DNA from: Candidatus Pacearchaeota archaeon | Lineage (GTDB): Archaea; Nanobdellota; Nanobdellia; Pacearchaeales; GW2011-AR1 | NCBI GenBank assembly: GCA_018304985.1 | Contig: JAGVWP010000001.1 | Location: 3,913 to 67,912, forward strand | Direction of reading: 5' to 3' | DNA: 64,000 nucleotides | Shown here: piece by piece, positions 52,674 through 61,577 of the stretch | Layout: each line of letters begins with the position of its first letter | How positions within the stretch are numbered: position 1 is the stretch's first letter | The notes under the pieces: generated by a model | Told to the model about the DNA's origin: nothing | Seen by the model: the letters and a program-made list of their open reading frames with translations, nothing else | The model's database searches: none | Made by a program: the position numbers and the translations under genes

Positions 52674-53195
52674 ATGAAAAAAGAAATGAATGGATTTAAT
52701 CTTATTTTATTTATTCTTTTTATAGTTATTTTAATCATTTTAGCAATTATTTATGTGTTTTTTATTAATTTTAAACAGCAAACACCTGTTCAAACAGCTG
52801 AAAATATTAAACAGGTGTGTTTTAAACAGGTAGATTTACCAATAAATAAGTGTTTTAGTGTTGAGGTTGCGCAAACAGCTGTTGAAAGAGAAAAAGGTTT
52901 GATGTTTAGAGAAGAATTAGGCCAAGATAAAGGGATGTTATTTATATTTCCAAAGGCAGAAAAATATGGATTTTGGATGAAGAATACGCTTATTCCATTA
53001 GATATAATCTGGATTGATGAAAATAAAACAGTAGTTGATATTAAAAAAGATGTTCAGCCGTGCAGGGCAAATAATTCAGATAATTGTCCTGTTTATGTTC
53101 CTGATAAAGAAGCAATTTATGTATTGGAAATAAATTCTGGTTTATCTGAGGAGAATAATTTAAGTGTTGAAGATGAAGTTAATCTTATAAGTTGA
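52674..53195 (+). CDS. DUF192 (COG1430) family protein
   Basis: N-terminal TM, then REKGLMFR...GMLFIF...FWMKNTLIPLDIIWID. Confidence 0.6.
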   Translation: MKKEMNGFNLILFILFIVILIILAIIYVFFINFKQQTPVQTAENIKQVCFKQVDLPINKCFSVEVAQTAVEREKGLMFREELGQDKGMLFIFPKAEKYGFWMKNTLIPLDIIWIDENKTVVDIKKDVQPCRANNSDNCPVYVPDKEAIYVLEINSGLSEENNLSVEDEVNLIS

Positions 53196-54018: not shown

Positions 54019-54846
54019 TTATAATCTATCTAAAGGAGATTTGACTTTTTTAATTTGACTGCTTGAAATATGAGTATATAATTCGGTAGTAGAAATATTG
54101 GCATGACCGAGCATTTCTTGAATAATCCTTATATCTGTTCCACTTTCTAATAAGTGGGTTGCGAATGAATGTCTAAGAGTATGGGGAGTCACTTTTTTGT
54201 TTATTCCTGCTTTCAGCGCTGTTTTCTTAATTAAAAGTTGTATGTTTCTGGTTGTTAAAGGCTTGTCCTTTGAAAAAATGAATTTATTTTCGGGATTGCT
54301 AGTTATCTGTTTTTCCAGTTGCTTTGAAATTGAATCTGCTAATCTAAATATTCTATCTTTTTTCCCTTTTCCTCTCCTGACCCAACCAATACTTTGTTTA
54401 AAATCTAAGTCTTTAGGAGTAAGGTTAACTAGTTCTGAAACTCTTAAGCCAGAGCTGTAGAGAAGCTGGATTAAAAGTTTTGATTTTTTGAAATTGGCTG
54501 AATCTATTAAAGATCTAACTTCTTCAACAGAAAGCACTTCTGGAAGCTTTCTCTCCCTTTTTGGGACTTCTAACTTAACAAATATATCTGGCCTGTCAAG
54601 AACTCTTTTAAAAAAGAATCTTAAACTTGAGACAGCCAAAGCCCTAGATTTATTGCTATATCTGTCAATTAAACTAGCTAGATAGGATTTAACTTCATCA
54701 AGACTTGTTTTTTCAGCAGAGTCTATTTTTTCTAAAAATGGTCTGAGAAAGAAAATGTAAATGTTAATTGTATTTTTACTATAATCTCTTAATCTTAATT
54801 CAGTCTTCACTTTATCCAAGTATTTTTCTATTTCCTCTTTTTGCAT
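54019..54846 (-). CDS. xerA: tyrosine site-specific recombinase (XerA/XerC/XerD-like)
   Basis: C-terminal catalytic box LRHSFATHLLESGTDIRIIQEMLGHANISTTELYTH, plus R and K box residues. Confidence 0.8.
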   Translation of the reverse strand: MQKEEIEKYLDKVKTELRLRDYSKNTINIYIFFLRPFLEKIDSAEKTSLDEVKSYLASLIDRYSNKSRALAVSSLRFFFKRVLDRPDIFVKLEVPKRERKLPEVLSVEEVRSLIDSANFKKSKLLIQLLYSSGLRVSELVNLTPKDLDFKQSIGWVRRGKGKKDRIFRLADSISKQLEKQITSNPENKFIFSKDKPLTTRNIQLLIKKTALKAGINKKVTPHTLRHSFATHLLESGTDIRIIQEMLGHANISTTELYTHISSSQIKKVKSPLDRL

Positions 54847-56534: not shown

Positions 56535-57085
56535 GAAATATAGCTGTTTATCGGGATTTTTGCTATGGGATTTTTATCGACGTAGTTTAGGTGTTTATTG
56601 GTGTTTAAACAGCTGTTTATTGTAAAATTAGTGCTGTTTAAAGTGTTAAAATAGCTGTTTATGGGTGTTTTTTATAAGTTTTTATAGTATTTTTTGCTGA
56701 AAAAACAAAACATTTAAATACCTCTTCCGTATATAAATTATAGAATGTTTAACTGGCTATTTAATCATAAGAAAAAAGAGGAGATGGAAGAGGTAAAAAA
56801 GGAAGTAAGAGGCTCTTTTGATCATGTTAAATCTGATATTGAAAGAATTAGCAAGTGGGTTAACCATCTAAACAACCAGGATATTTCTTTAAACAGCTGT
56901 TTAGATGATGTTAAACAGGATATATCGACGATAAAAAATGATCTTGAACAGGTTAAAGAAGTTATTTCTATGTTAAATGATGAGGTATCTAAACAGGTGT
57001 TTAAAACAACTAAGCCTGTTTATCGTAAACAAACAGCTGTTGAAGGTGTCCAAACAGCTGTCCAAACAGCTGTCCAAACAGGCAA
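56535..57085. repeat. array of at least 9 copies of the palindromic motif AAACAGCTGTTTA / CTGTTTA spanning the promoter and 5' part of the downstream HTH gene
   Basis: Copies near 56541, 56608 (perfect taaacagctgttta), 56632, 56653, 56890 (perfect), 56993, 57015 and 57030. A 3 x 12-bp tandem gtccaaacagct lies at 57049-57084. Confidence 0.8.
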
Positions 57086-57380
57086 AAATAATGATTTTTT
57101 AGGAATCTCAAATTTATCTGTAACTGAAAAAGCAATTCTTTGGGTTTTAATAAATAATGAATTAAAATTAAGTTATGATGATTTAGCTGCAATGCTTGGA
57201 AAAACTAGATCAACAATAAGAGGTCAGATAAATAGTATAAAACAGAAAAGTGATGGATTAATTGAAGAATATGTTGAAAGTAATGGTAAAAAAAGGGTTT
57301 ATATTCCTAGTGAAATAAAGGAAAAAATACTAAAAAATGTGAAAGTGAGAATTGATAAGAAGATTAAAAGAAAGGGATAA
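56745..57380 (+). CDS. coiled-coil / C-terminal winged-HTH DNA-binding protein with a TAVQ low-complexity linker
   Basis: N-terminal heptad-like region, (TAVQ)3 repeat, and a C-terminal LSVTEKAILWVL...STIRGQINSIKQK HTH. Confidence 0.5.
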   Translation: MFNWLFNHKKKEEMEEVKKEVRGSFDHVKSDIERISKWVNHLNNQDISLNSCLDDVKQDISTIKNDLEQVKEVISMLNDEVSKQVFKTTKPVYRKQTAVEGVQTAVQTAVQTGKNNDFLGISNLSVTEKAILWVLINNELKLSYDDLAAMLGKTRSTIRGQINSIKQKSDGLIEEYVESNGKKRVYIPSEIKEKILKNVKVRIDKKIKRKG

Positions 57381-57832
57381 GGTAGTGGATAATAGATTAA
57401 TTAAAGTTGTATAAGGGGGGTTTGTAGGACCTAAAATAACTCTAAAAAACGAAAAGTGAGAGTTCAAATATCCTAAAAACCTAAGGAAAATAGGGAAAAA
57501 GGTAAGTAAATAGGCAAAACAAAAAATAAATAGGTAAAAGTGAGGATAAAAATACTAAAAAATTTTAATATTGATTAAATAAAAAATTCAGAATGTAGTA
57601 AAGTGAGAAGAGAATAAGAAAAAATAAAAATAACTTGGTAAAAATATATTAAAAAATAAAGGAAAATGAGAAAAATGTAGGGGGTAAAAAGAGAAAAAGG
57701 AGGTGTAAATGTAGGGGATAAATAATAAGTGAGATAAAATAAAGGAAAACATTAAAAAAAATAAACTGGGAAATTAGAAGGTTAGTAGACTTGTTCGGTA
57801 TACCCATTAACTAGAAGTTTATATTTATGAAT
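57381..57832 (+). other. 450-bp non-coding polypurine (A/G >85% on the + strand) spacer with short internal repeats
   Basis: No ORF on either strand. Motifs such as aaataggYaaaa, aaagtgag and gtagggg recur. Confidence 0.6.
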
Positions 57833-58510
57833 TTATATCTCTCTAAGCTTGATTAAAGTGTCTAAAGAGGCTAATTTTTTGAGATTTTGAGATATGTGGA
57901 GGAGAACTTTCTTGTTATTAATCTTTTCTTTCTCAAGGGAGATACCCTTGGCAATTATCCTTTGAATATAGTCTCTAATTGAGCTTTCAGAAAGATTTAG
58001 CTTGGAAGATAATAAGGGATAATCGACGAGAAAGCCCTGATCTTCAAGCTGGTAAATAAGAGAAAAAACAAGCATTTCCTGGTTAGTAAGATGTTTAAAT
58101 TGAATGATAGTCTCTTTTTTAAGAGCATCCAATTGGTCTAAAATTAGGGAAGTATTAGGTAAATAACCCTGTCTGTCTGTCTGTTGGTTTGTCTGTCTGT
58201 CTGTCGAAACCCCCTTATTTCCTATGGAATTTAAGGTATTTTGACTTTTTAAGCCTTGAAATTGGTATTTATCTGTCGAAGTGTCTGTCGAATTGCTGGA
58301 ATGTGTTGGATTTATCTGTCGAAGTGTCTGTCGGTTTGTCTGTTTGAAATTAGGGTTTTTTTCTAAAATATTTGAGTTAGTTTTAACAGAAAAAAGAACT
58401 AGAATTGAATTTTGGATTTCATCAAGTTCTTTATGAATACTTGAAATTTCCTGCTTAAGAAGAGTTATATCTTCTTTTACTTTTTGAAAAGCTTCTTTTA
58501 CCTGATCCAT
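57833..58510 (-). CDS. coiled-coil / C-terminal HTH protein, paralogue of 56745-57380, with (GTCT)n-encoded TDRQ low-complexity region
   Basis: Same architecture as 56745-57380; C-terminal LTNQEMLVFSLI...SSIRDYIQRIIAKG HTH; tetranucleotide tracts at 58170-58204. Confidence 0.5.
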   Translation of the reverse strand: MDQVKEAFQKVKEDITLLKQEISSIHKELDEIQNSILVLFSVKTNSNILEKNPNFKQTNRQTLRQINPTHSSNSTDTSTDKYQFQGLKSQNTLNSIGNKGVSTDRQTNQQTDRQGYLPNTSLILDQLDALKKETIIQFKHLTNQEMLVFSLIYQLEDQGFLVDYPLLSSKLNLSESSIRDYIQRIIAKGISLEKEKINNKKVLLHISQNLKKLASLDTLIKLREI

Positions 58511-58576: not shown

Positions 58577-58846
58577 TCATTTGGTATGGTTAGAATAAGC
58601 TTCCTGGGCTTTATTTGATAATCTCCATCTAAGTCTTCTTAGGTATTTAGTTCCCTTTGAATTCTTATTTATAGGGATAACAATACCTTTTTTCTCTAAT
58701 TCCTGAATTAGAGTTTTTGTAAATTCTTCATCCCTAGCTATTTCATGGGCTATTTGAGAAGTAAATAGTGGTTTTGGGAATTGATCATAAAGAACTGAAA
58801 GAATATGTTCTGTTATTTTTTCCCTCTTTTTATCTGAAATTTTCAT
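58577..58846 (-). CDS. small winged-helix protein
   Basis: ORF with a helical pattern. Confidence 0.3.
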   Translation of the reverse strand: MKISDKKREKITEHILSVLYDQFPKPLFTSQIAHEIARDEEFTKTLIQELEKKGIVIPINKNSKGTKYLRRLRWRLSNKAQEAYSNHTK

Positions 58847-58907: not shown

Positions 58908-59312
58908 TTATGGTTTAACAACTCTTGGAAGGGGGATGTGTGGTGGAAGATTAAGGTCCTCTTCCAGCTGCAAGGCACGTAAGTTACATTTTGTAAAGAT
59001 AGCATTAATTACCTCGGCTTTTATATCTTCAGAGATTTTTTTGTCCTTCCAGTCTTTTAATATCTTTTTAGAAATTTCATTATTATCAACTAGAACAAAA
59101 ATAGTCCCTTCCATTAGTAAATTGGCAAAGTTTGGCTCGTAATCCACTTTAAATTCGTAATCAAACATTAAAGTGTCCTGGTTTTTGAATATTTCAGCTG
59201 TCTTTTTCTCAATATTCTTCACCTCAGCATTAAGATTTATATTAAGGCCTTTAGCAGAATCGCCTTTTCTTTCTACAGTAATTTTCTTAAAATTAAATCC
59301 AACAATCTTCAT
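58908..59312 (-). CDS. hypothetical protein
   Basis: ORF. Confidence 0.35.
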   Translation of the reverse strand: MKIVGFNFKKITVERKGDSAKGLNINLNAEVKNIEKKTAEIFKNQDTLMFDYEFKVDYEPNFANLLMEGTIFVLVDNNEISKKILKDWKDKKISEDIKAEVINAIFTKCNLRALQLEEDLNLPPHIPLPRVVKP

Positions 59313-59363: not shown

Positions 59364-59624
59364 TTATCTTAAATCTTCTTCAGAAACAACTACAAAATCC
59401 CCTATAGCCATGATAGAATTGTGAGGAATAAGCAATTCCCCTTGATTTGTTCTTTCAAGATTAAGGTTTTGAGAGTAAACTGTCGGGTTTTTAATAACTA
59501 ATTGTATTAATTCGCCACTTCTTGTTTCAAAAGTAATGTCCTGAATAAAACCTATTCTCTTACCTTCTTTTGTAACAACTAATTTTCCGGCAAGTTCCCT
59601 TAACGCTCTTTTTTCGTCTGACAT
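59364..59624 (-). CDS. PRC-barrel domain protein
   Basis: GKRIGFIQDITFETRSGELIQLVI pattern. Start taken at the ATG (MSDEKR), with an aaaagtttaaata BRE/TATA about 30 nt upstream. Confidence 0.5.
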   Translation of the reverse strand: MSDEKRALRELAGKLVVTKEGKRIGFIQDITFETRSGELIQLVIKNPTVYSQNLNLERTNQGELLIPHNSIMAIGDFVVVSEEDLR

Positions 59625-59830
59625 ATTAGGTAAAAATAGACTCAATATTTAAACTTTTCTATTATTTGTTAATGAGTATTCAATGATTAGTGTTATTAAA
59701 ATTAATTATAATAGATTTTGAATAGATTAATTCTAACAGAGTTGATTGTAAGGTTTTTGAATGGTTATAGTTTAAAAAGGGAAAGTAATGATTTGAAATA
59801 CCCTTAAAGGGTGGCATTGCACAAACTTGA

Positions 59831-59995
59831 CTCCACCCTGACCCCCTGGTTTCGTATAGAAATGTTTAAAAAGAAAATTGAAATTTTGCTTTTCTTTCTC
59901 TTCTTTTCTTTTTTAAATATATATATTATATATTATATATATTATATTATTATATATAGTAATATATATACTAAAATATATATGTTGATGAGAAT
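59831..59995. promoter_or_regulatory. oriC: predicted chromosomal replication origin region: ORB-like box (ctccaccctgaccccctggtttcg, 59831-59854) plus AT-rich DUE with (TA)n/(TATAT)n tracts (59906-59985)
   Basis: Immediately upstream of orc1/cdc6, in the canonical archaeal oriC-cdc6-polD arrangement. A pyrimidine run precedes an almost pure A/T repeat. Confidence 0.45.
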
Positions 59996-60254
59996 TTGTT
60001 AAAAGATTCTAAAATAAGTTATAAGAAATTATAAACTAAGTTATGGGAATTTTAAAGGGAATTCTGGCTATTTCAAAGGAGGAAAAAAGATATATTTCGA
60101 GGGTAAAGTTTTATTTTTAATGTATTTAATTCTCCATAAGAAACAGAGGTGTGAGTATAAAATAATTAAGATTTAAATTAAAGAAATAACCTATTATACA
60201 AAAGTTTATAAGAAATAAGATTATCTGATTTTGTAAAAAGAGGAAAAAGAGGAA

Positions 60255-61577
60255 ATGCCCAATATATTGCCAATATCAAAGACACCTAATTCAAAAATAC
60301 CTAATACCTTAAATAATTCAAATAAGTCTCAGGAGGGGATGAATAAAATTTTTGATTCTTTTATGCAGAATAGTATTTTTGAAAATAAAGCGGTTTTACA
60401 GACAAGTTATACTCCTGAAACTATCCCACATAGGGATGAACAAATAGGGCAGATTGCCAGTATATTAGCTCCTGCATTGAGGGGTGAGAGAACAAGCAAT
60501 TTATTTGTTTATGGCAAAACTGGGAGTGGGAAGACTATTTCTGTCCAGTGTGTTAGGGATGAATTGTTAAAAAGACAAGCAACAAACAAAAATAAATTAA
60601 TTATACAATATATTAACTGCAAGCTAAAAAAGGTTTCAGATACAGAATATAGGATTTTAGCCGAGTTAATAAAAAAGCTCGGAGGAAATGTTCCTGCTAC
60701 TGGTCTTCCGACAGACCAGGTTTATAATAAATTTTTAGAATTAATTGACAATGAAAAGAAATTAGTTATTCTTATTTTTGATGAGATTGACCATGCAGTT
60801 AATAAAATTTCAGATAATTTCCTTTATAACTTAACTAGATTAAATTCCGAGCTTTCTAAAAGCCAGATAAGTGTTGTTGGAATAAGCAATAATCTGACTT
60901 TCTTAGATGATCTTGATCCTAGAGTTAGGAGTTCTCTAAGTGAAGAAGAGGTTGTTTTTCCACCCTATAATGCTTTAGAGTTACAAGATATTTTAAAAAA
61001 AAGAGCAGATATGGCCTTTAAAAAAGGAGTTTTAGAAGAAGGAGTTATAGCAAAATGTGCTGCATTCGCTGCAAGAGAGCATGGAGATGCAAGAAGAGCT
61101 TTAGATTTATTAAGAATAGCTGGTGAAATTGCTGAAAGAAATAATCTCCTTAAAGTAAGTTTGAAAGACATAGATAATGCCAATGAGAAAATAGAGAAAG
61201 ACAAAATTTTAGATATTGTTAAAACAGAGCCAAAGCAATTTCAGCTTGTTCTTCTTGGAATTATGGAAATTCTTGAAAAAAAGGAAAAAAGCGAAAAAAC
61301 TTTGTTTGATAGCGAAAAAACAAAGCAAAGTGAGGTTTTTACAGGAGATATTTATAATGCTTACCAGATATTATGCGAGAAAACAAAAACAGAAGTGTTA
61401 ACTCAAAGAAGGGTTTCAGATATCTTGTCTGAATTTGACATGATGGGAATAATCAACAGCACTGTGATCTCCAAAGGAAGACAGGGAAGAACCAAAAAAA
61501 TAAAATTAGCTGTCCCGAAGAATCTTACAGGAAAAGTGAAGACTATTTTATATGATTCACTTGAATTAACTGCTTAA
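60255..61577 (+). CDS. orc1: Orc1/Cdc6 replication initiator (AAA+ with C-terminal winged helix)
   Basis: Walker A GKTGSGKT, Walker B ILIFDEID, sensor and arginine regions, winged-helix C-terminus. Confidence 0.9.
   Translation: MPNILPISKTPNSKIPNTLNNSNKSQEGMNKIFDSFMQNSIFENKAVLQTSYTPETIPHRDEQIGQIASILAPALRGERTSNLFVYGKTGSGKTISVQCVRDELLKRQATNKNKLIIQYINCKLKKVSDTEYRILAELIKKLGGNVPATGLPTDQVYNKFLELIDNEKKLVILIFDEIDHAVNKISDNFLYNLTRLNSELSKSQISVVGISNNLTFLDDLDPRVRSSLSEEEVVFPPYNALELQDILKKRADMAFKKGVLEEGVIAKCAAFAAREHGDARRALDLLRIAGEIAERNNLLKVSLKDIDNANEKIEKDKILDIVKTEPKQFQLVLLGIMEILEKKEKSEKTLFDSEKTKQSEVFTGDIYNAYQILCEKTKTEVLTQRRVSDILSEFDMMGIINSTVISKGRQGRTKKIKLAVPKNLTGKVKTILYDSLELTA

Follow-up and report, generated by a model that had tools for sequence, protein, structure and literature searches.

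Among the archaeal regulators with a winged helix-turn-helix (wHTH) fold that control their own genes, Ss-LrpB and the Lrs14/Sta1 families act through regularly spaced palindromic boxes. Arrays of sites are also found in partition systems, such as parC-ParR of plasmid R1, in which the iterons flank the par promoter, ParB-parS, with parS inside spo0J, and the SegB sites of Sulfolobus. In lambda, the iterons of ori are placed inside the O gene, as 19-bp units by an AT-rich tract, and they constitute the origin, O being the replication initiator (PMC7466680). Origin recognition boxes (ORBs) were also described outside core origins, as a cluster inside Pyrococcus dp1 (PMC1904270) and in the ORB-rich oriC2D of Haloarcula hispanica, which titrates Cdc6E (PMC3936714). 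Here we analysed a 64-kb stretch, hereafter the window, of the chromosome of a Candidatus Pacearchaeota archaeon (DPANN; assembly GCA_018304985.1, contig JAGVWP010000001.1, positions 3,913 to 67,912), in which an original prediction had noticed an iteron-like array of short palindromes, here called motif A, over the promoter and 5′ coding region of a gene for a helix-turn-helix (HTH) protein of 211 amino acids (aa). To our knowledge, nothing is known experimentally about the architecture of replication origins or about gene regulation in Pacearchaeota, and our literature searches on Pacearchaeota or DPANN origins or ORBs, or on this locus, returned nothing relevant. Motif-A arrays are under purifying selection before and inside this gene in at least 72 Pacearchaeota/Nanoarchaeota species, and we consider them, with a probability of roughly 0.55, as sites of a sequence-specific DNA-binding protein, precisely as autoregulatory operators of the coiled-coil wHTH protein encoded at the locus.

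The locus fails the defining tests of plasmid iterons, of ORBs and of ParABS systems, and it fits an autoregulatory operator array except for one feature, an overlap of the sites with the core promoter. It is similar to lambda in that dyad-symmetric sites lie inside the gene of a DNA-binding protein (here the candidate binder), in an inter-domain stretch, and in that the number and sequence of the sites dictate the amino acids of the protein. It differs from lambda in that the units are 6-7-bp half-sites phased at about 10.5 bp, that a second array precedes the promoter, that no AT-rich tract adjoins the arrays, that the ORB/orc1 origin is 3 kb away and that the protein has no initiator signature. 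As in the partition arrays, phased repeats flank the promoter of the putative binder, so that autoregulation and a structural role could be performed by one complex, and the sites are in coding DNA, origin-proximal and at few loci (within the window and the 8-20-kb stretches of relatives that we scanned). Unlike the partition proteins, the candidate binder is made of a coiled coil and a wHTH domain, being neither of the ribbon-helix-helix (RHH) type nor a ParB, and it has no partner NTPase gene: no deviant Walker-A motif (KGGxGK[ST]) occurs in the 64-kb window and no ATPase is encoded in the conserved gene cluster, and this absence of a ParA-type gene argues against a classical partition system. 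The phased, apparently cooperative palindromic boxes before the protein's own gene and the winged-helix fold recall Ss-LrpB and the Lrs14/Sta1 families, from which the locus differs by an 80-residue N-terminal helix, a 35-residue linker, family matches far below the cut-offs and many more sites (about 9 + 8), which lie about 90 bp or more from the TATA box and continue into the coding region. Finally, as for the ORBs outside core origins, for which a titration or regulatory role was proposed, the sites occur within genes, or beside them, in the neighbourhood of orc1 and PolD; motif A itself is no ORB and is presumably bound by a different protein.

To count sites in the window we considered as a relaxed half-site of motif A any [CG]TGTT[TC] (the family form of the half-site being G[CG]TGTTT[AG]), and as a cluster any group of at least 4 of them found by scanning the whole 64 kb with 150-bp windows. 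The sequence CTGTTTA/TAAACAG occurs 27 times on the two strands of the 64 kb, compared with 12.4 ± 3.3 times in shuffled sequences, and 10 of the 27 copies fall within 56544-57022, a region for which about 0.1 copies per 551 bp are expected; the array is thus dense far above chance, as had been claimed. Between 56544 and 57081 there are 19 relaxed half-sites, 8 of them upstream of the gene (56544-56671) and 11 inside it (56890-57081). Exactly three clusters were detected in the 64 kb, starting at 56537 (8 sites), 56882 (8 sites) and 52753 (10 sites), the Poisson probability of at least 8 sites in one 150-bp window being about 3e-9. The two perfect 14-bp palindromes TAAACAGCTGTTTA of the original prediction are present, at 56606-56619 and 56890-56903, that is 1 and 3 bp away from the starts given for them (56605 and 56887).

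The other 17 of the 27 CTGTTTA/TAAACAG copies are at about chance level and form no cluster beyond 52.75-52.88 and 56.54-57.08 kb, so that a motif frequent throughout the genome, which would have spoken against the original prediction, was not what we found in the DNA examined. For the relatives we analysed about 8-20 kb each. A mean position profile of 79 loci showed a background of 0.02-0.03 motif-A sites per 100 bp per strand across ±4 kb; around the start codon a locus has instead about 5.3 sites between -300 and -100 and about 2.9 between +100 and +300. A 20-kb stretch of a related 856-kb contig likewise has clusters only in a DUF192 gene, before the HTH gene and inside it. A restriction or methylation palindrome was also considered and rejected, the expected dispersed occurrence being absent from the window and the flanks of the relatives being at background.

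The upstream array (56544-56671) consists of 8 half-sites ([CG]TGTTT[AT]) separated by 47, 10, 5, 7, 21, 21 and 10 bp, with the core GTGTTTAAACAGCTGTTTA at 56601-56619. The check suggested together with the original prediction, whether relatives carry this locus, gave a clear answer: among the 73 loci of other species with enough upstream DNA, 72 have a cluster of at least 3 strict half-sites before the orthologue. The clusters of the 73 loci have a median of 7 strict half-sites (about 7-9) and a median span of 81 bp, and they lie 14-334 bp, typically about 120-210 bp, before the ATG, the proximal edge of the array being at a median of 123 bp from the ATG and about 90 bp before the TATA box. 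The typical core among relatives is GGTGTTTAAACAG[CG]TGTTTA, and the usual arrangement is GTGTTT-AAACAG-CTGTTTA together with direct repeats one helical turn apart. Across species the spacings between sites on the same strand peak at 10, 20-23, 30-33 and 42-43 bp, which is helical phasing at multiples of about 10.5 bp, and inverted pairs keep a fixed offset of 6-7 bp (95 + 34 cases). Such a structure of dyads and half-sites suits a dimeric winged-helix protein.

An unbiased metagenome scan for the 19-mer core GTGTTTAAACAGSTGTTTA returned 120 loci, and in 91 of these the gene adjoins the match and has the same orientation. The remaining matches for the most part either leave no room for the gene or are isolated single ones, in unrelated, GC-rich organisms or in chance codings of FKQVF or FKQLF; one Pacearchaeota-like exception (L146) has the array before a UppP-like gene. 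Searches for RNA genes gave no tRNA adjoining the arrays in seven relatives (ARAGORN) and, in Rfam at the gathering threshold, only 5S rRNA and distant tRNAs, the locus itself and four related loci being empty. In one subclade (L034, L038, L041, L053, L061, L069, L070, L079) a palindrome, (T)GTGCACTAAGGTTAnCTTAGT, which is not in the window, directly precedes the array of motif A, some 200 to 260 bp before the ATG; it has no tRNA and no Rfam match and may be a XerA/dif-type site or the site of another protein.

Inside the gene, motif A is present in two segments. The first (56890-56918) consists of the second perfect palindrome and of the half-site TAAACAG (56912-56918); it is clade-specific and codes for LNSCL and VKQ, amino acids that are not conserved across the family. 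The second (56990-57081) codes for residues 83-113 (KQVFKT...KQTAVEGVQTAVQTAVQT) and includes the in-frame tandem of three 12-bp units that had been pointed out, which we located at 57047-57081 (2.9 copies, 100% identity) and which codes for (VQTA)n. In the window motif A is thus read in three frames, as LNSCL, KQVFK and QTAV. The most conserved stretches of the protein alignment are KQ[VL]FKT and KQTAV..VQTxVQTxVQT, yet they correspond to a linker predicted as disordered.

In the codon alignment of the family (80 sequences), residues 84-112 have a pairwise synonymous diversity of 0.059, against 0.399 in the rest of the gene (Mann-Whitney P = 2e-8). These codon statistics ignore phylogeny, an effect for the most part controlled by comparison with those columns of the alignment that are conserved to the same degree: at the invariant HTH residues K141, L142, T157, R159 and K183 the synonymous sites vary freely and are hence saturated in this sample. 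In the array, on the other hand, Q84 is CAG in 38/39 sequences (background 0.39), V85 is GTG in 42/42 (0.23), L85 is CTG in 20/23 (0.06), Ala in the repeats is GCT in 181/181 cases (0.36), Gly is GGT in 84/86 (0.26), Pro is always CCT, and Thr in the linker is ACA in about 98% of cases (0.49). The amino-acid variation of the repeats is limited to A/G/P, that is to GCT/GGT/CCT, which reads on the DNA as AACA-[GC][CG]-TGTT; the central dinucleotide of AACA-NN-TGTT is GC in 62, GG in 33, CC in 3 and CG in 0 cases upstream, and GC in 108, GG in 68, CC in 20 and CG in 0 cases in the gene. Flanking-base preferences are alike in the upstream and in-gene arrays and were not seen in control DNA, and a variant spaced by 1 bp tends to occur both upstream and in the gene of the same genomes (Fisher P = 0.007, uncorrected for phylogeny). 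The synonymous invariance and the A/G/P variation that mirrors the upstream degeneracy indicate that the in-gene copies are selected as DNA, as binding sites imposed on a tolerant segment of the protein; the conserved peptide KQ[VL]FKT..KQTAV..(VQTx)3 looks like being largely a by-product of the DNA code.

The third cluster (52755-52878; 10 relaxed half-sites), which was absent from the original prediction, is in the 5′ part of a DUF192 gene (52674-53195), where it codes for FKQQTPVQTAENIKQVCFKQ...AQTAV. It sits between the parts coding for a transmembrane helix and for the DUF192 domain, in a linker region. The peptide KQQT[AP]VQTA..KQVCFKQ of the DUF192 protein resembles the linker of the unrelated HTH protein and coincides with the motif in the gene. 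The array is also in the orthologues of related genomes (L207, 10009-10160; L208, about 5200), although of closer relatives only, and in two related genomes DUF192 is 4-8 kb upstream of the HTH gene.

The gene with the arrays (56745-57380, + strand) codes for a protein identical to one Candidatus Pacearchaeota hypothetical protein; the protein database contains 2386 homologues, and 453 GTDB species have relatives. The AlphaFold model agrees with the coiled-coil/wHTH description of the original prediction: it has a single long helix at residues 3-81, where coiled-coil matches are also found, a linker predicted as disordered at residues 82-116 (predicted local distance difference test, pLDDT, < 50) and a confident C-terminal wHTH domain at residues 126-201 (pLDDT about 90). 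The wHTH fold resembles MarR/MepR, the Lrs14-type AbfR2 (6cmv) and SmtB, with Foldseek E values of 2e-5 to MepR and 1e-4 to AbfR2. Sequence profiles did not place the protein in the MarR, Lrs14 or Sta1 families: Pfam HTH_11 scored 23.7 bits (cut-off 25), and the NCBIfam scores were 23.4 for Sta1 (cut-off 80) and 16.5 for Lrs14 (cut-off 90). Searched by sequence, the PDB offered no close structure, only coiled-coil noise and a weak match to sigma region 4, and no match to replication initiator (Rep) families was found in Pfam, NCBIfam, PDB or PLSDB.

The putative TFB recognition element (BRE) and TATA box, CAAAACATTTAAATA at 56706-56720 (+ strand), were assigned by archaeal promoter rules; the TATA box TTTAAATA begins at 56713, 32 bp before the ATG at 56745. 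In nearly all relatives this distance is 27-30 bp (quartiles 28-30), a fixed position that implies a leaderless or near-leaderless mRNA. The upstream array stops at 56671, 42 bp short of the TATA box, and motif A is missing across the core promoter and the first ~145 bp of the gene. Hence the part of the original prediction regarding sites in the 5′ coding region holds, while the promoter proper is uncovered, and the sites do not overlap the BRE, the TATA box or the transcription start site (TSS), as they would in classical archaeal repression.

We infer that the binder is the locally encoded 211-aa protein. The sites are in the control region of the gene for this putative regulator, and where orthologues of the gene occur the sites are conserved too (72/73 species; 91/120 metagenomic loci). 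Covariation between recognition helix and motif could not single out the binder since both are nearly invariant across the family. In the mechanism that we propose, the long N-terminal helix would form dimers or higher oligomers, and the flexible linkers would allow the winged-helix domains to settle on half-sites that are phased along one face of the DNA. The upstream and in-gene arrays are about 400 bp apart, and the complexes formed on them could then bridge, so that the promoter would be looped out together with the 5′ half of the gene; in addition or instead, the in-gene complex could act as a roadblock for the elongating RNA polymerase. Either looping or roadblock would result in negative autoregulation. 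Autoregulatory operators were one of the readings offered by the original prediction and are the best supported of them, given the conservation and the near exclusivity of the arrays to this locus, with the correction that the sites flank the core promoter instead of overlapping it.

Several observations weigh against autoregulation by the 211-aa protein. The 225-aa protein and the 89-aa HTH_69 protein encoded within 2 kb are equally conserved, and either could be the binder. The upstream array is clear of BRE, TATA box and TSS (array edge at a median of 123 bp from the ATG, TATA at -29), which excludes simple occlusion and makes activation as possible as repression. The array in the coding DNA of DUF192 is in an unexpected place for a transcription-factor operator. 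Array and gene are in some cases separated, by a small inserted gene in L144 (1.5 kb) and L137 (0.6 kb), and in L117 they are 3.8 kb apart. Moreover, the confinement of the arrays was evaluated on about 64 kb here and on stretches of about 8-20 kb in the relatives, and further sites may exist elsewhere. The distance of at least ~90 bp from the TATA box and the occasional detachment from the promoter suggest a structural or replication-related role, and the complex probably also marks or organises the origin-proximal region, a role made probable by the confinement of the arrays to a few kb by the origin and by their presence, in part, in the coding DNA of another gene.

The gene order around the locus is conserved: the gene with the arrays is followed by a convergent 225-aa gene, an HTH_69 gene, a PRC-barrel gene, orc1 and PolD. 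Synteny was counted over 80 loci, within the limit set by a 4-kb flank, and was found for the convergent 225-aa gene in 80/80 loci, for the HTH_69 gene in 74/80, for a 134-aa gene in 60/80, for the PRC-barrel gene in 58/80, for orc1/cdc6 in 43/80 and, upstream, for a XerA-type recombinase in 23/80. The 225-aa gene (57833-58510, - strand) codes for a protein with an N-terminal helix, a long low-complexity linker and a C-terminal HTH; its architecture is like that of the 211-aa protein, with no demonstrable homology (BLASTP not significant, E = 0.057). Ahead of it, an operon convergent with the HTH gene codes for the PRC-barrel protein (59364-59645), the uncharacterised 134-aa protein (58908-59312) and the small 89-aa HTH_69 winged-helix protein (58577-58846), and these genes are syntenic in most species. 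PRC-barrel proteins are linked to archaeal cell division.

The ORB consensus has a core TTCCAnnGGAAA followed by a G-string, CTTCCAGTGGAAACGAAAGGGGT, with variants such as GTTCCAGTGGAAATAA-AGGGGT in Methanomassiliicoccales (PMC4153887), and Pyrococcus ORBs were also described (PMC1904270). A search of the 64 kb with this consensus gave three matches, compared with 0.28 expected: one without mismatches at 58209-58229 (- strand), and two ORB-like ones at 59841-59861 (- strand, 2 mismatches) and 60132-60152 (+ strand, 3 mismatches). The two ORB-like matches form an inverted pair with an (AT)n tract (59917-59983) between them, just before orc1/cdc6 (60255-61577), after which comes the gene of the PolD small subunit. 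This is the classical layout of an origin, and from the sequence we consider 59841-60152 as the probable oriC, 2.8-3.3 kb from the motif-A arrays; the GC skew along the 64 kb, dominated by the strand of the genes, showed no inflection that could be used. Motif A, when evaluated as an ORB, was rejected, having neither the TTCC..GGAAA core nor the G-string. The perfect ORB, TTCCATAGGAAATAAGGGGGT, is followed by (ACAG)n, which codes for (TDRQ)n, and this block (58169-58229, - strand) is in the linker-coding part of the 225-aa gene, 1.1 kb from the motif-A array. The block is invariant in 57 species, including at synonymous sites (TCC 57/57, GGA 57/57, GGG 57/57, GAC 56/56, CAG 56/56), and the strict ORB with its G-string is at this position of the gene in 63/79 loci, always on the same strand. 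The ORB in the 225-aa gene is hence a second, independent DNA code inside a disordered linker.

Two further motifs accompany the arrays. Motif B, the palindrome TTATCG-N-CGATAA, is found upstream of the gene, in the degenerate form TTTATCGACGTAG (56574-56586), and at codons 60-64, as ATATCGACGATAA (56921-56933), which codes for I-S-T-I-K. Relatives have L-S-S-I-K at the in-gene copy, with the rare codon TCG (background 0.12) in 65/72 and 47/52 sequences, and TCGNCGA is enriched at -300 to 0 and at +100 to +200 in 79 loci and is nearly absent elsewhere. In distant relatives motif B is often directly before the BRE/TATA. Motif C (AAGTGAG, + strand, 57343-57733), which is not part of motif A, has one copy in the gene, at 57343 (coding for KVR), and four in the spacer that follows it, at 57454, 57538, 57601 and 57727. 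In relatives it is enriched only at +400 to +900 and only on the + strand, and it is fixed in codons 168-170 and 200-202 (V201 GTG 77/79, S169 AGT 71/73); it could be a DNA site, an element of the 3′ untranslated region or a terminator. Of the motif-C spacings, three are whole multiples of 21 (84, 63 and 126 bp). Between the convergent genes, the spacer (57381-57832) is purine-rich (on the + strand of relatives, A 48%, G 20%, C 7%) and contains two TGTAGGGG(G)[TA] elements, at 57677 and 57709. At its end, just outside the 3′ end of the 225-aa gene, there is in most species an imperfect inverted repeat, TTATTCGGT-nn-ACCGA (about 57786-57802).

A first alternative to autoregulatory operators, which we regard as tentative, is that the arrays are landmarks of the origin domain, centromere-like or replication-control sites. 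They would then count mainly as a few dense loading or titration sites by oriC, and less for the transcription of the HTH gene, autoregulation being only a side effect. The coiled-coil wHTH protein would here bridge or condense origin-proximal DNA, or modulate initiation, in the manner of parS/ParB, of parC/ParR or of ORB-rich titration regions, and the architecture of phased arrays with a bridging-type protein is in favour of this possibility. The synteny of the cluster with orc1/PolD is kept, at 2.8-3.3 kb from the origin and 1.1 kb from a perfect ORB, the sites are tolerated and maintained in the coding DNA of two genes, and only 3-4 clusters, all on the same side of orc1, were found in the 64-kb window and in two related 20-kb stretches. 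In some genomes the distance between array and promoter is also variable, and the ORB clusters in Pyrococcus dp1 (PMC1904270) and the Cdc6E-titrating region of Haloarcula (PMC3936714) are precedents. In the other direction, neither the cluster nor the 64-kb window has an ATPase of the ParA/MinD/SegA type, motif A is unrelated to the ORB, the wHTH fold is generic, being neither ParB nor RHH, and a place before the gene in 72/73 species suits a transcriptional role at least equally. The suggestion of the original prediction that the repeats are accessory origin elements has to be limited in the same sense: they are not part of the core origin, and an accessory function is possible.

An extension of this possibility, to be considered doubtful at present, regards the whole region as an island of about 8 kb of cis elements by oriC, kept by Pacearchaeota and related DPANN archaea, in which codes for DNA binding are written in the disordered-linker-coding parts of at least three unrelated genes; we counted here motif A (211-aa gene and DUF192), the ORB with (ACAG)n (225-aa gene) and motifs B and C. 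The local coiled-coil wHTH proteins would assemble on the island an origin-proximal nucleoprotein complex, centromere-like and without a ParA, coupling the initiation of replication to chromosome organisation or segregation, and the most conserved peptides of these proteins would be by-products of the translation of the DNA code.

It is very unlikely that the element acts at the RNA level, with the palindromes forming mRNA hairpins that affect translation or stability. The in-gene palindromes would indeed form hairpins, and synonymous constraint alone cannot distinguish DNA from RNA; the densest array, on the other hand, is upstream of the TATA box and therefore outside the predicted (near-)leaderless transcript, the presence of both orientations and the ~10.5-bp phasing are typical of duplex-DNA binding, and the motif is also found in another gene and has no Rfam match.

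Still less probable is that the in-gene copies are a mere DNA shadow of a functional peptide, (VQTA)n and KQLFKT, the upstream copies being either real sites or chance. The peptide is invariant across the family, and CAA, ACA and GTT are preferred codons in these genomes; the codons that are fixed are, however, non-preferred ones (CTG, GTG, CAG, GCT and GGT, at the background frequencies given above), the synonymous diversity is 7-fold below that of the remaining gene, whereas the codons of invariant HTH residues are free to vary, and the A/G/P alternation equals the degeneracy of the upstream sites, CGT being missing as is CG upstream. In addition, the region is predicted as disordered, and the unrelated DUF192 protein has the same peptide at the same DNA motif. 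As to the DNA-level claim, this explanation is effectively refuted.

The explanation to which we give the least credit is that the arrays are iterons of an integrated plasmid or virus replicon with a Rep-like 211-aa protein, inserted by the XerA-like integrase (54019-54846, confirmed by Pfam Phage_integrase with E = 1e-45): apart from the iteron-like look, a tyrosine recombinase gene 1.9 kb upstream and a lambda-like layout with sites in the linker region of the gene (PMC7466680), the observations are against it and against an island bounded by att sites, as the family is carried by 453 species genomes with flanks conserved on both sides (225-aa gene 80/80, orc1 43/80), has no homologues in 2.9 M viral contigs (IMG/VR) or 72,556 plasmids (PLSDB) and no Rep/initiator match, the recombinase is a standard XerA-type gene found in the same neighbourhood in 23/80 relatives, the arrays have no AT-rich unwinding tract beside them (the only (AT)n tract is 2.8 kb off, and there is a canonical orc1-linked origin at 3 kb), and the repeats, instead of being one-way tandems of about 17-22 bp, are made of 6-7-bp half-sites that face both ways at spacings of 10-13 and 20-23 bp.

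The locus lends itself to precise tests: the site is defined (GTGTTTAAACAGCTGTTTA), the three candidates for its binder are encoded within 2 kb, and there is a mapped ORB/(AT)n/ORB origin. As a natural example of overlapping codes it is unusually clean, with binding arrays, and even an Orc1 ORB, placed in the disordered-linker coding DNA of a tiny genome. The arrays dictate amino acids whose conservation extends over hundreds of species, and one and the same peptide arises in unrelated proteins. For the annotation of genomes, this means that a highly conserved motif in a disordered region can be a DNA signal and not a functional peptide.

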